A stretch of 64,000 nucleotides of DNA. Origin: Candidatus Poribacteria bacterium. Its GTDB lineage: Bacteria > Poribacteria > WGA-4E > WGA-3G. Positions 19,918 to 26,089 of this stretch are shown piece by piece. The translations under genes and the position numbers were made by a program. The stretch lies in contig CAXXLX010000001.1 of the NCBI GenBank assembly GCA_963665235.2, forward strand, positions 3,040,001 to 3,104,000, in the 5' to 3' direction. The first letter of the stretch is position 1; the number at the start of each line of letters is the position of its first letter. Below the pieces are notes generated by a model that saw only the letters and a list, made by a program, of their open reading frames with translations, was not told where the DNA came from and made no database searches.

Positions 19918-19977
19918 AATCTTAGCGTCCCTAAAACCGATTACTTGCCAAGCAGAAAATTACCGGCACGCTCACAT
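19918..19977 (-). repeat. partial copy of the island leader element
   Basis: tagcgtccctaaaaccgattacttgccaagcagaaaatt shared with 20708-20845 and 23663-23800. Confidence 0.85.
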
Positions 19978-19999
19978 GGAGAAACCGCCTAATGTTAAA

Positions 20000-20449
20000 T
20001 CACGGAACGCTTGAAACAAAGTGATTTTCGGGAGTTTTGTGATTATTGGAAATAGGTTTGGTTTCTACTATCCCTTTTGAATAACTAATAGTGGTATCAA
20101 AATTGCACAGAAAATCCAAACCTAATATGGCATCTGTAGTTATATCAGGAGCCAATTGATGAAGTATAATATCCATATCATTTACCGATTCACCAATTGC
20201 TTCAACTTTTGAAACTCTTATAATCTTACTCCATCCTGAACCATAAACCCCAGAAAACGCCGCCATCTCTTTAGGTTTCGAAATATCATAACCTAAATTT
20301 GAAGCGACTTTTGGAGGTATCACACTACGCGCTGCACCAGTGTCCAGCACTGCACTCATTGTTAAAGAAGATTCAAGTGTCTCACTATATACAGTCAAAT
20401 TCAAGATGATTAACTTATCTCTAGAAATATTGAAACGAATACATCCCAT
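20000..20449 (-). CDS. retropepsin-like aspartic protease
   Basis: AVLDTGA catalytic motif and ILGLDFL. Confidence 0.88.
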   Translation of the reverse strand: MGCIRFNISRDKLIILNLTVYSETLESSLTMSAVLDTGAARSVIPPKVASNLGYDISKPKEMAAFSGVYGSGWSKIIRVSKVEAIGESVNDMDIILHQLAPDITTDAILGLDFLCNFDTTISYSKGIVETKPISNNHKTPENHFVSSVP

Positions 20450-20676
20450 TAAAGTATGAACAATCTATCTTCAGGCATTTTGCCGGTATAGTGTATCGCT
20501 GCTCCTCCTATAAATCCGCCTAATGCATCATAGACATCATCACGGACTCTGCTATGAACAGAAACGATACCGCCTAGGAGTTCAGTATTCTCACTGATTT
20601 CAGGTTCTATAATAAACAACCACTCATTTGGATATTTCCGTTCCATTTCTGCTATCGTTAAACGTTCAGCATCCAT
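20449..20676 (-). CDS. small protein (DUF5678-like) translationally coupled to the aspartic protease
   Basis: ERKYPNEWLFI..GIVSVHSRVRDDVY..HYTG; TAATG stop/start overlap. Confidence 0.7.
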   Translation of the reverse strand: MDAERLTIAEMERKYPNEWLFIIEPEISENTELLGGIVSVHSRVRDDVYDALGGFIGGAAIHYTGKMPEDRLFIL

Positions 20677-20707
20677 TTTATAATAGTCTCCTCAAATCTG
20701 GAATTGG

Positions 20708-20845
20708 ACGAATACGGTCGGGTTACCGAAAAACTCGACAGCAAACGATTTTAGCGTCCCTAAAACCGATTACCTGCCAAGGAGAAAATTGCCAACACGC
20801 TATTATTAATTATACACCCCAGAAAAGCATTTGTCAAGTTAAAAT
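20708..20845 (-). promoter_or_regulatory. promoter (TTGACA-N17-TATAAT, 20809-20837) plus ~95-nt structured leader, copy B
   Basis: highly similar to 23663-23800; long imperfect hairpin with compensatory changes. Confidence 0.8.
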
Positions 20846-22974: not shown

Positions 22975-23406
22975 TTAGTCCTTTATGCTATTGCCATTCG
23001 CTGTGACTCCCGGCGTGCTGTTTTGTGAAGGCGGTGCTTCGTCAAAGGGAAGGCCTTTTGCCTCTGCCTCCAACCGGCGAGTATTCCAAGCAGCTATCTC
23101 TTTATATACCTCGGCTTTAGCGGCAGCGGCAAGTGCTGCATCATGCTTTTCTATTTGCCGTTTCATCAAATTCCAGAATAACATAAGTAATGAACCTCCT
23201 ACATCTAAACAAAATGTTAGAAAGAATGCGGTAGGTATCGCGTCTGTGACATCAGCGGCTATCAGGCGAACCCGTTCAGAAAAACTGTTCACCTCAACAG
23301 GCGGTGCCGTGAAAAGATAGCTCACTACCGCTACAATAAAAAAAATCGCGTTCCCTAATCCAATATCTTGAGTGAAACTGAAGAGAGGTGCCCGCTTCTT
23401 TTTCAC
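22975..23406 (-). CDS. hypothetical membrane protein
   Basis: GTG start after AAGGAG; two TM segments; WNTRRLEAEAKGLPFDEAPP tail. Confidence 0.65.
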   Translation of the reverse strand: MKKKRAPLFSFTQDIGLGNAIFFIVAVVSYLFTAPPVEVNSFSERVRLIAADVTDAIPTAFFLTFCLDVGGSLLMLFWNLMKRQIEKHDAALAAAAKAEVYKEIAAWNTRRLEAEAKGLPFDEAPPSQNSTPGVTANGNSIKD

Positions 23407-23482
23407 ACTATGCTCCTTTTTTATTGTATAAGTTAACGTGATTTCGAAAAAACTACATCCTTCTATGCAATAAACCCCTTCG

Positions 23483-23664
23483 CCTATTCCTGGCACTTCA
23501 AAGGCACATGTGCACTCAGCGGAATGTCGGTTTCGGCAACACCCTCCGCTTGTAGGTTTCAATTCCCTTCAAACAAGCAAGTAGATGTGCACGCGCAGAG
23601 TTATCTGCAATTGCAGTATGCACTGAATTTCAATTCCCTGATCTGCCGGCGGCCACAATTTTAC
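23483..23664 (-). CRISPR. degenerate, cas-less CRISPR-like mini-array (one clear 37-nt repeat, two degenerate repeats, two spacer-length intervals)
   Basis: minus strand: GTAAAATT...CAGGGAATTGAAAT (23627-23664), 34 nt, GTGCACATCTACTTGCTTGTTTGAAGGGAATTGAAAC (23556-23592), 40 nt, GTGCACATGTGCCTTTGAAG... (from 23515); directly follows promoter plus leader. Confidence 0.5.
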
Positions 23665-23800
23665 GAATACGGGCAGGTTAGCGAAAAACTCGACAGCAAA
23701 CGATTTTAGCGTGTCTAAAACCGATTACTTGCCAAGCAGAAAATTGCCTGCACGTTATTATTGATTATACACCCTAAAAAAGCGTTTGTCAAGTTAAAAT
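23663..23800 (-). promoter_or_regulatory. promoter (TTGACA-N17-TATAAT, 23764-23792) plus ~95-nt structured leader, copy A
   Basis: perfect sigma70 consensus followed by a long hairpin 23666-23759. Confidence 0.8.
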
Positions 23801-23831
23801 GAGGGTTTTTGCAATTTGTTGCGTTCTTTAT

Positions 23832-25004
23832 CTATGTCAGTGCAGGCAGCTCCGGCAATTCCATCCATCTGCGATTTTTCCAAGATTCCATGCCCTTTTC
23901 TGCTAACTGAACCCCTTTCGCTCCTTCAAGCAGCGTCCACGGAAACGGTTCATCCGCAACGACATGTCGAAGGAAGAGCTCCCACTGTGCCCGAAACGCA
24001 TTTTCGTACGTTTCCTGTTCAGGAATTTTGAGCCATCCATCAAAAAATTTAATCGGTTGTTCAATGTCGGGATTCCAGACAGGTCGGGGGGTACCAGAGA
24101 GTGGTTGAATCCAACAATCTCGCAAACCGGCAATAGCGGACCCGTTCAAACCGTCTACCTGTATTGTCAACAGGTCATCTCGGCGGACACGGACTGCCCA
24201 GGAGGAGTTGAAATGTGCAACAATTCCATCCGCGAGTTCAAAGGTAGCATACGCGGCATCTTCAGCCGTGCATTGATACGGTTCGCTGTTTTCATCCCAA
24301 CGTTGTGGGAGATGCGTCGTGGCGATACAGGAGACACCTTTGACAGCACCGAAAAGGTTGTCTAAAACATATCGCCAGTGGCTAAACATATCGAGAATAA
24401 TACCGCCGCCATCTTCGGCGCGGTAGTTCCATGAGGGACGCTGGGTCGGTATAGCGTCGCCTTGGAAAACCCAATATCCGAATTCTCCCCGGATAGCGAT
24501 AATTTTACCGAAAAAGGCTGCATCTATCAACCGTTTCAGTTTCCGAATACCGGGCAGCCAGAGTTTATCCTGAACCACTCCGTTTTTAAGTCCTGCTTTC
24601 GCCGCCCGTTCATAGAGACGATATGCATCGGCGGTTGTGGTAGCCGTCGGTTTTTCACAATAGATGTGTTTACCAGCGGCTATTGCCGCTTCAACTGCAG
24701 CGACGCGAAGTGACGTGACCTGTGCGTCAAAATAGACAGTATAAGTGCTGTCAGCCAAGGCAGCGTCTACATCCGTACTCCACTTTTCAACCCCCGTCAC
24801 TTTGGACAATTTTTCAAGTTTCGTCGGATTTCTGCCGACAAGGAACGGGTCGGGCATGATGACTTCACCATCCCCGATTGGAATGCCGCCGTCTTCGGCA
24901 ATTGCTAAGAGAGAACGGATGAGGTGTTGGTTCGTTCCCATCCTCCCGGTGACACCGTTCATGATAATACCGACTCGGTGTGTTTTCTGCACATCATTTG
25001 TCAT
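23832..25004 (-). CDS. Gfo/Idh/MocA family oxidoreductase
   Basis: IIMNGVTGRMG, HIYCEKP, GEFGYWVF, GGGIILDMFSHW. Confidence 0.92.
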   Translation of the reverse strand: MTNDVQKTHRVGIIMNGVTGRMGTNQHLIRSLLAIAEDGGIPIGDGEVIMPDPFLVGRNPTKLEKLSKVTGVEKWSTDVDAALADSTYTVYFDAQVTSLRVAAVEAAIAAGKHIYCEKPTATTTADAYRLYERAAKAGLKNGVVQDKLWLPGIRKLKRLIDAAFFGKIIAIRGEFGYWVFQGDAIPTQRPSWNYRAEDGGGIILDMFSHWRYVLDNLFGAVKGVSCIATTHLPQRWDENSEPYQCTAEDAAYATFELADGIVAHFNSSWAVRVRRDDLLTIQVDGLNGSAIAGLRDCWIQPLSGTPRPVWNPDIEQPIKFFDGWLKIPEQETYENAFRAQWELFLRHVVADEPFPWTLLEGAKGVQLAEKGMESWKNRRWMELPELPALT

Positions 25005-25492: not shown

Positions 25493-26089
25493 CTATTCAA
25501 AGAGTTCAGCCACCTGACAAGAAAATCCTTCTATAACGTCCTCACCGGTGAGTGTGTCATTCCGCGTTAGTAATGTGATGTCTGTCTCCGAACGATAAAC
25601 CGTCACTGTTTTTGATGTGGGTTGAATAACCCATACGAGCTGTGTGCCTGCCTCAAGGTATGCTAAAACCTTTTCATCAATACGGTAGATCGTATCTGTC
25701 GGTGAAACCACCTCAACAGCGAGGTCCGGCGGGAACTGAAACGCTTTACTCCGGTCAGCGGGGAGCCGGTCTGTTGAAACGAAGGCGATATCAGGGATTA
25801 GCATCCTTTCACCAATCCAGAAGCTTGTATTCGCTATATAGACACGTCCTAATTGGTTTTCACGAACATATAGGTGTAACGGCGAAATTAGGTTCAGGCT
25901 AATTTCACTGTGCTCTCCTGGAGTAGGGAGCCTCGGCACTAATTCTCCTTCGATGTATTCATAACCCTCTAAATCGGTTTTAAGGAATTCCTCAAACGTC
26001 ATCGTGATTTTAGAAGGGTACTCCCCTTGTAGCAAGGAGACGGTGGCAGGTGTGTCGGGAGGCAGTGCGTCGTATTCTTTTGTGTTCAT
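25493..26089 (-). CDS. Uma2 family putative endonuclease
   Basis: YEYIEGEL, IPDIAFV, PPDLAVEVVSP, YLEAGTQLVWVI. Confidence 0.92.
   Translation of the reverse strand: MNTKEYDALPPDTPATVSLLQGEYPSKITMTFEEFLKTDLEGYEYIEGELVPRLPTPGEHSEISLNLISPLHLYVRENQLGRVYIANTSFWIGERMLIPDIAFVSTDRLPADRSKAFQFPPDLAVEVVSPTDTIYRIDEKVLAYLEAGTQLVWVIQPTSKTVTVYRSETDITLLTRNDTLTGEDVIEGFSCQVAELFE

Follow-up and report, generated by a model that had tools for sequence, protein, structure and literature searches.

The closest described counterparts of the locus reported here are the degraded mini-arrays surveyed by Shmakov et al. in 2023 (PMC10120712). The survey reports mini-arrays near 10-14% of type III loci, without conservation or targets, and judges them degraded and non-functional. 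The present locus resembles them in having two to three eroded repeat-like units of its host's type III repeat, no detectable target and no conserved position. The degraded mini-arrays are found close to a cas locus or an array. The present locus, by contrast, is on a different replicon from the cas genes and at a synteny breakpoint; a consensus promoter precedes it, and an unrelated repeated element is joined to it.

The orphan arrays of Anabaena sp. PCC 7120 are reportedly likewise distant from cas genes, have a repeat that matches a Cas6 encoded elsewhere and belong to a CRISPR-rich genome (bioRxiv 10.1101/2020.04.14.041012). Their repeats are intact, whereas only one of the three units of the present locus is recognisable, its stem is damaged and no leader precedes it. 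Listeria RliB (PMC3886909) is another small cas-less array, and it is expressed as a non-coding RNA. For the present locus, conservation is seen in one further strain only. RliB is reportedly conserved across strains and is said to be processed by PNPase.

Divergent repeat variants that flank a spacer-like segment also characterise CreA/CreR and CreTA, which the survey (PMC10120712) places inside type I (or V-A) cas loci, with a partial match to a nearby promoter; the present locus, unlike these, has no cas neighbourhood, goes with a type III system and gave no match. Phage RNA anti-CRISPRs and viral crRNA-like RNAs share with it the presence of repeat-like units outside an array, but they are reported to come from phages or other mobile elements and to imitate the portion of the repeat that Cas proteins bind (bioRxiv 10.1101/2024.10.29.618823), whereas the locus is chromosomal and has lost that part. 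Our literature searches, on mini-arrays, orphan arrays and Poribacteria CRISPR, turned up no functional type III mini-array far from cas genes.

Results

Layout of the locus

The window, that is, the whole 64-kb stretch of DNA analysed, corresponds to C1:3040001-3104000 of a 5.3-Mb genome in four contigs; positions without a contig name refer to the window. The locus occupies 23792-23479 on the minus strand and consists of a promoter that matches the consensus at 12/12 positions, a hairpin element, three repeat-like units and two intervals of 34 and 40 nt, here called S1 and S2. A motif scan found a 12-nt motif, TTTCAATTCCCT as read on the plus strand, in two copies at 71-nt spacing. A first-pass annotation of this DNA had seen a promoter, a hairpin, repeat units, the two intervals and the 71-nt spacing, and all of them lie on the minus strand where it had placed them. 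The features are the following.

23832..25004, minus strand: upstream gene for a GFO/IDH/MocA oxidoreductase, the last syntenic gene ahead of the breakpoint
23792-23764, minus strand: sigma-70-type promoter TTGACA-N17-TATAAT, 12/12 match to the consensus
23632..23757, minus strand: L element, a repeated element with an imperfect hairpin of ~50 nt (the "structured leader" of the first-pass annotation)
23737-23688, minus strand: L hairpin, then a U5 run at 23688-23684
23627..23639, minus strand: unit 1 remnant by alignment, the last 13 nt of the repeat only, AGGGAATTGAAAT
23593..23626, minus strand: interval S1, 34 nt, spacer-like
23556..23592, minus strand: unit 2, a 37-nt degenerate repeat that carries the tag ATTGAAAC
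23516..23555, minus strand: interval S2, 40 nt, spacer-like, GC 57.5%
23479..23515, minus strand: unit 3, a terminal degenerate unit by alignment to the repeat
22975..23406, minus strand: downstream ORF for a hypothetical protein of 143 aa, GTG start preceded by an AAGGAG ribosome-binding site
20702..20845, minus strand: copy A of the promoter and L element, 89% identical, no repeat units

The genome's own CRISPR-cas systems

Contig C2 carries an array (array 1) of 44 identical 37-nt repeats and a degenerate terminal one, 45 repeats altogether, with spacers of 34-43 nt. Directly upstream of it are encoded Cas1, a group-II-intron-type reverse transcriptase, a 355-aa Cas6-like protein (C2:263614-264678), Csx19, Csx7 and Csx10, together with a Cas10-like protein (a weak match) and a TIGR03986 RAMP fused to an RNA-binding domain; a TM1812/DxTHG protein is encoded downstream. 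The open reading frames of this operon are full-length, and its gene content marks it as type III-D-like, not Cascade. Contig C1 carries array 2, with four copies of a related repeat, and a solo repeat at C1:656.9k. Arrays 1 and 2 have ~330 nt of leader in common, the proximal ~190 nt of which are also found at the solo repeat. Searches with the Cas1 and Cas6 families returned further loci on C2 and at C1:2737k, ~300 kb from the locus, and a k-mer scan indicated several more large arrays in the genome.

The locus had been called Cas-less at first pass. This is true of the 64-kb window, in which a search with 12 cas-locus proteins gave no homolog; it is not true of the genome, which has a type III-D-like operon on C2. 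The same annotation had named, as grounds for dropping its proposal, a genome and relatives with neither a related repeat family nor cas6, and units without conservation at orthologous loci. Both a repeat family and cas6 homologs are present, so the first of these grounds falls away; the locus was not found in the 60 relatives searched, all of other genera.

Repeat homology and erosion

We aligned the repeat family from 16 distinct repeats of five arrays in three genomes, namely the locus genome and two relatives. The 5' 12 nt of these 16 repeats differ from array to array, and there is almost no variation in the 3' 25 nt: none at all at T14, T15 and C16, with conservation of at least 90% at C17 and C18. 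Positions T14-C18 make up the 5' arm of a TTCCC/GGGAA stem. The stem reaches one base into the tag, and its end is the expected Cas6 site.

Comparison of the 37-nt unit with bona fide repeats, as had been proposed at first pass, gave identity at 32 of 37 positions between unit 2 and the array-1 repeat. By our own arithmetic ~7e-10 matches of this kind are expected in 128 kb, so unit 2 lies far beyond chance. Its 3' 19 nt, including the 8-nt tag ATTGAAAC, are unchanged, and all five changes fall within the 5' 18 nt, for which we calculate a probability of ~0.03 if changes were placed at random. TGCTT replaces TTCCC, that is, T15, C17 and C18 are changed; two of these three stem changes are C>U facing G and retain wobble pairs. 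The repeat hairpins are predicted at -8.3 kcal/mol, whereas unit 2 folds at -2.5 and both hairpins are lost. Judged by the alignment, the erosion falls exactly where the repeat family is most conserved.

A covariance model of the family scored real repeats at 44-52 bits, terminal and solo repeats at 35-50 bits and unit 2 at 25.3 bits (E 4.8e-4 in the window, 0.039 in the genome). Unit 2 is the sole match under E 0.01 in the whole window, and it ranks 59th of the 60 genome matches at E<=1. Units 1 and 3 were not detected by this model at E<=10, and in BLAST searches merely 12-13-nt pieces of them match the repeat. Unit 1 had been described as a 38-nt repeat, but the match is confined to its last 13 nt, 12 of them identical and the final one a C>T change within the 8-nt tag; the rest belongs to the repeated element, and the 5' arm of the Cas6 stem is lacking. 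Unit 3 retains the first 11-12 nt of the repeat and a TTTGAAG sequence, the 5' arm of the stem being deleted. A resemblance of its tail to the trailer of array 1 was rejected as homology, since 16% of shuffles equal its score.

The locus has the period of an array, 71 nt as against 71-80 nt in array 1, and intervals of fitting length, 34 and 40 nt as against 34-43 nt; it is without three other features looked for: at least two recognisable repeats, a conserved leader, and an intact Cas6 stem-loop ahead of the 8-nt tag. No Rfam family covers the leader or the units, and nothing in the window attains a gathering score; the best match, CRISPR-DR2, lies on the opposite strand and reached 17.6 bits (E 8.2), where 37 is the gathering score. 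The proposal, made at first pass, of a decayed array remnant is supported by these data, given the related repeat family in the genome and units eroded at its most conserved positions.

Promoter and L element

The promoter is part of a ~40-nt cassette, near-identical copies of which occur at ~7 further sites in the genome, one of them ahead of a 16S rRNA gene. The genome contains 125 perfect consensus promoters where 0.9 are expected, so that the promoter of the locus is very likely real and strong, yet not special.

The L element is present in six copies genome-wide, and two copies additional to that of the locus lie inside the window within 4 kb, at 20702-20845 and 19919-19992. Copy A has the same promoter and leads, without a repeat unit, to a 75-aa ORF and an aspartyl-protease gene. 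In the alignment, copy B and the locus share sequence as far as 23632, i.e., into unit 1, which places the junction between L and the array fragment inside the first repeat. In copy C, alignment and folds show a compensatory double change, G-C>A-U, as well as G.U>A-U, and the stem is preserved. With its ~50-nt hairpin followed by a U5 run, L looks like a terminator or an attenuator.

The "structured leader" of the first-pass annotation is a different matter from a CRISPR leader. The full 363-nt leader or UTR folds no better than its shuffles (z = -0.98), and L is a repeated genomic element that is not detectably related to the real CRISPR leaders. An HMM of the L element did not match them, and an HMM built from the leaders of arrays 1 and 2 only gave no match at the locus while recovering the leader of the solo repeat at C1:656.9k; the comparison with bona fide leaders suggested at first pass was therefore negative with either HMM. 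A gapped local alignment of the L region to the array-1 leader did score 42 against 26.8 +/- 4.1 for shuffles, but we attribute this to composition, neither HMM confirming it.

Folds and targets of the intervals

The lengths of S1 and S2, 34 and 40 nt, are inside the 34-43-nt range of the 44 spacers of array 1. S2 folds at -13.5 kcal/mol with a 6+6-bp hairpin, which beats all 44 real spacers and is matched by 4.2% of 1000 shuffles; S1, at -8.3, is equalled by 4 of the 44 real spacers and by 4.7% of shuffles. The self-folding of the intervals, which had been taken as atypical of captured spacers, is so only moderately.

In the genome, S1 and S2 find at best 13-14 nt of exact identity or 17/18 (E>=0.43), no better than the 16-17 nt over which the 47 real spacers match by chance. 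Across the genome, including the cas region, the promoters and the small contigs, neither interval shows complementarity above chance, and short seed-type matches are indistinguishable from it. Against 50,697 phage and 72,556 plasmid records there was no match at E<=1. The searches of genome promoters and phage databases advised at first pass thus brought nothing beyond chance. None of the 47 real spacers matches the locus. The 17/18 match of S2, at C1:3342864, was discarded as a target and taken as chance: its E is 0.43, and it corresponds to the sense of the mRNA, not to a guide-complementary sequence.

Neighbourhood and synteny

The locus stands among genes that Pfam assigns to an oxidoreductase, a cupin, a Uma2 protein, a BNR protein, a glyoxalase and PPDK. 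Three neighbour proteins searched in PADLOC showed no phage or plasmid hallmark; two had candidate-defence matches and the BNR protein had none. The neighbours beyond these three were judged by Pfam only. The 143-aa ORF belongs to a multi-copy family with 17 matches in its own genome and has no Pfam or PADLOC family. Metagenome scans, of a collection that may leave out close kin of the locus genome, recovered its protein at only two distant paralog loci and gave no match to a 27-nt variant-repeat pattern.

Of 41 family genomes, 40 have the upstream oxidoreductase as a single-copy ortholog. In seven of nine relatives' loci it is followed by a gene of ~490 aa (next but one in one of them), the other two giving no match, and in none of the nine is it followed by the genes found downstream here. 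This gene order in relatives puts the locus at a synteny breakpoint. The ortholog of the ~490-aa gene is found 279 kb off in the locus genome, at C1:3342615-3344081. The C1:3342864 match of S2 falls in this gene.

DNA searches of the 60 relatives detected neither the L element nor the intervals. The promoter cassette is present in 11 of these genomes, and real arrays of the same repeat family in two.

A second strain and public sequencing runs

Among seven public runs from three studies, of which four were aligned to the window, ~90% of the sampled words are present in four runs that come from a single study, and the source sample may be one of these. A run from another study yielded a 523-nt contig that belongs to another strain, spans 23271-23792 and shows 25 differences (~95% identical), so a second strain retains the whole unit. 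Among the differences listed, 23627, 23584 and 23503 are positions at which the other strain has the canonical repeat base and the locus genome the deviant one, which suggests recent unconstrained substitutions in the locus genome. The deviation at 23627 is the final base of the tag of unit 1. The only difference listed within S1, at 23614 in the other strain, costs the small hairpin one pair.

One contig from an RNA library of the same study covers 23292-23507, that is, the start of the ORF and the UTR into unit 3, and shows at most the presence of RNA or contaminating DNA; in such contigs neither ends nor strand are visible, and DNA can be present. At S1 and S2 the RNA-library contigs gave just pieces belonging to real repeats, and the adjoining depth of only 3.4 makes this uninformative. 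In run X5, a joint that skips 23300-23758 was considered as a deletion allele and rejected; it joins a 30-nt side to 16 foreign letters, and we take it as another copy of the repeated element.

Discussion

With its repeat homology, eroded stem, missing leader, lack of targets and breakpoint position, the locus is probably an array fragment that decays neutrally and is transcribed passively as a 5'UTR. Such a fragment would originate from a type III-D array of the genome's own repeat family and would comprise, in order, a repeat tail, a spacer, a repeat, a spacer and the terminal degenerate repeat. Recombination may have carried it to the main chromosome at a rearrangement breakpoint, where it would have been fused, within its first repeat, to the repeated element of promoter and L hairpin, and it would since have decayed at about the neutral rate. 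Transcription would run from the consensus promoter past the L hairpin, through the fragment and into the 143-aa ORF. Because the promoter is the perfect consensus promoter of an rRNA-operon cassette, the fragment is probably transcribed, and read-through into the ORF would make it today probably just a part of the 5'UTR. Neither growth nor normal processing is open to it, since a leader, a Cas1 site and intact Cas6 stems are all missing.

Some of the data sit less easily with decay. The untouched tag and 3' 19 nt of unit 2 could reflect selection on the tag that precedes S2. The unit also survives in a second strain. The intact tag and 3' half of unit 2, the strong promoter and the stability of S2 above that of the 44 real spacers keep functional readings alive next to pure decay.

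Among these readings, a working orphan mini-array is unlikely, though several observations suit it. Unit 2 would be cut, perhaps inefficiently, by the Cas6-like enzyme of C2, and the resulting S2 guide, with its intact ATTGAAAC tag, would serve type III-D immunity against an unsampled mobile element. Type III guides require Cas6 only for their 5' tag, so that even a weakly processed unit 2 could still yield an S2 guide. The intact tag and 3' half of unit 2, intervals as long as real spacers, a cognate cas operon of full-length open reading frames, the strong promoter and the retention of the unit in the second strain are all consistent with such a role, and cyanobacterial orphan arrays are reportedly processed in trans by Cas6 (bioRxiv 10.1101/2020.04.14.041012). 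The repeat itself argues the other way: the 5' arm of its Cas6 stem is altered at three of five positions, one of them invariant in the family, and its covariance score is half that of real repeats. With the tag of unit 1 mutated and its Cas6 site gone, S1 can hardly mature. The L hairpin and U-run stand between the promoter and the units, and no protospacer was found in the phage and plasmid collections or in the small contigs of the genome.

We see a slim chance that the fragment, with its rRNA-grade promoter and the 8-nt tag retained in unit 2, has been exapted as a crRNA-like module. It would then supply an S2 guide to the type III-D complex encoded on the other replicon, or a leader recognised by Cas6 or the effector. 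In either case the state of the CRISPR system might be linked to expression of the downstream membrane-protein operon, or to tolerance of an element not yet sampled, at a similarly slim probability.

Very unlikely, in our view, is an exapted 5'UTR that acts in cis, in which chiefly the hairpin of S2 and the palindrome that opens unit 3 would determine how stable the mRNA of the 143-aa ORF and of the genes behind it is, or how well it is translated; whether with or without Cas6, we give such action the same low probability. The position of the fragment would suit this: the consensus promoter is on one side of it, an ORF that has a good ribosome-binding site is on the other, and the promoter scan found no other promoter-like site between the two. 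The unusual stability of S2 is in line with it, as is the RNA-library contig at 23292-23507, which may however be DNA and whose ends are not visible. The fold of the whole UTR (z = -0.98) speaks against it, as does the S1 difference in the other strain, which breaks a pair and does not compensate one. The units are unique in the genome, and the paralogous ORFs elsewhere have no such leader.

The first-pass annotation had also put forward a CRISPR-derived RNA that uses Cas6 or Cascade in trans for regulation, or an RNA anti-CRISPR; a type III-D-like system on the other replicon, the lack of a target and the broken stem do not bear this out. In current terms this would be a CreA/CreR-like crRNA-like regulator, which represses a gene through partial complementarity, or a decoy that titrates Cas6 or effector subunits in the manner of Racr, the phage RNA anti-CRISPRs. 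The locus does have a strong promoter, and according to the survey (PMC10120712) degenerate repeats around a spacer are the hallmark of such mini-arrays and their partial targets are hard to detect computationally. The survey found no functional type III mini-arrays, and the system cognate to the locus is type III. The locus is neither in nor beside a cas locus but on another replicon; complementarity to the cas region or to any promoter stays within chance, and the three PADLOC-tested neighbours carry no phage or plasmid hallmark. A decoy should retain the protein-binding stem, here the most damaged part, and of the two properties of RNA anti-CRISPRs, encoding by a mobile element and a Cas-binding repeat structure, the locus has neither. 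We consider this reading highly improbable, and it fits worst of all, because no cas genes are nearby, the system is type III and not Cascade, no target is seen and the stem has suffered most.

Should the exapted crRNA-like module be real, the locus would be the first case of a type III mini-array with a function outside a cas locus. If an S2 RNA that bears the tag is real and loaded, crRNA-like regulation extends to type III systems and to loci distant from cas genes. Read as a decaying array fragment, the locus adds another eroded CRISPR piece to a genome already very rich in CRISPR and matters little. It also carries a caution, as a 3' tag motif and a period of ~70 nt are insufficient to make a regulator. 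What it would offer is a clean, datable example of how pieces of arrays disperse and decay, with a junction within a repeat at a repeated element, a synteny breakpoint and three recent substitutions relative to the sister strain.

Neighborhood of the mini-array fragment

The gene downstream of the mini-array fragment, a probable eroded CRISPR remnant in the window, is a 143-aa ORF belonging to a multi-copy family: the source genome contains 17 matches, and as many as 33 occur in a relative. Similarity among the paralogs is found mainly in a C-terminal segment of ~40 aa, and no Pfam or PADLOC family was found for them. On the other side of the fragment, synteny breaks downstream of an oxidoreductase gene: the gene that follows it in the loci of 7 of 9 relatives lies 279 kb away in the source genome. 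Two further ORFs near the fragment match PADLOC candidates and are possible defence genes. Positions with no prefix refer to the window; C1 is the main chromosome and C2 another replicon.

22975-23406, 143-aa ORF
~23800-23830, synteny breakpoint (counterpart at C1:3342615-3344081)
20000-20676, aspartyl-protease ORF (PDC-M08B, E 1.9e-11), behind a 75-aa ORF and copy A of the L element
25493-26089, Uma2-family ORF (PDC-S03, E 1.7e-17)

The L element, the hairpin that follows the fragment's promoter, is present in six copies in the genome and was not detected in the 60 relatives searched. It consists of a ~50-nt hairpin followed by a U5 run, and one compensatory double change was seen between copies. 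Their 3′ ends differ, and four copies have in common a different upstream hairpin sequence. Candidate identities for the L element are an attenuator, a small RNA, and a mobile element.

23632-23757, 20702-20845 (copy A), and 19919-19992, L element copies in the window
C1:2603330-2603453, C1:3925729-3925803, and C1:4257336-4257399, L element copies elsewhere

Across the whole genome, perfect TTGACA-N17-TATAAT promoters were observed 125 times, compared to 0.9 expected (examples at 23764-23792, 20809-20837, and C1:1263766). Near-identical copies, ~40-90 nt long, form two promoter-cassette families, the first with ~65 matches to the CRISPR-leader HMM and the second shared with a 16S rRNA gene.

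CRISPR arrays and macro-units with a repeat core

Array 1, which lies beside a type III-D-like cas operon on C2, shares the proximal part of its leader with array 2 and with a solo repeat. The trailers of the latter two are near-identical, and the pair resembles the product of a locus duplication after which one copy was reduced to a single repeat. Further interspaced-repeat arrays reach 117 and 96 copies, with additional Cas1 and Cas6 matches nearby, and dozens of short repeat clusters, tandem or interspaced, have TCTATAAATATA / TAGGGACGATAT-type words in common. An RNA-binding domain (RRM-like, NF058537) is present at the N-terminus of a TIGR03986 type III RAMP protein; in the same operon, a stand-alone reverse transcriptase adjoins Cas1.

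C1:459735-459995, array 2 (4 repeats)
C1:656941-656977, solo repeat
C1:1689051-1696566, C1:2733944-2735322, C1:3934999-3935777, and C2:140432-156178, further large interspaced-repeat arrays
C2:272083-274500 (L002:14783-17200), TIGR03986 RAMP protein

Array 1 is followed downstream by six or seven macro-units, which are 193-269 nt long; three share the same 253-nt sequence. Every macro-unit begins with a perfect or near-perfect 28-nt copy of the hairpin core of the array-1 repeat, with an altered, ATGCGAAA-type tag, and is flanked by imperfect, GCCAAT/GGCGAA-rich inverted arms. At C1:1565.3k, macro-units come after a copy of the CRISPR-leader promoter.

C2:250409-254218 (L001:15910-19719), macro-units downstream of array 1
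C1:1565593-1565830 and C1:4289235-4289271, further macro-unit sites

The Cas6 stem is retained in the macro-units, which score 19-30 bits with the covariance model of the array-1 repeat family. The macro-units are therefore better candidates than the mini-array fragment for Cas6-bound non-guide RNAs.
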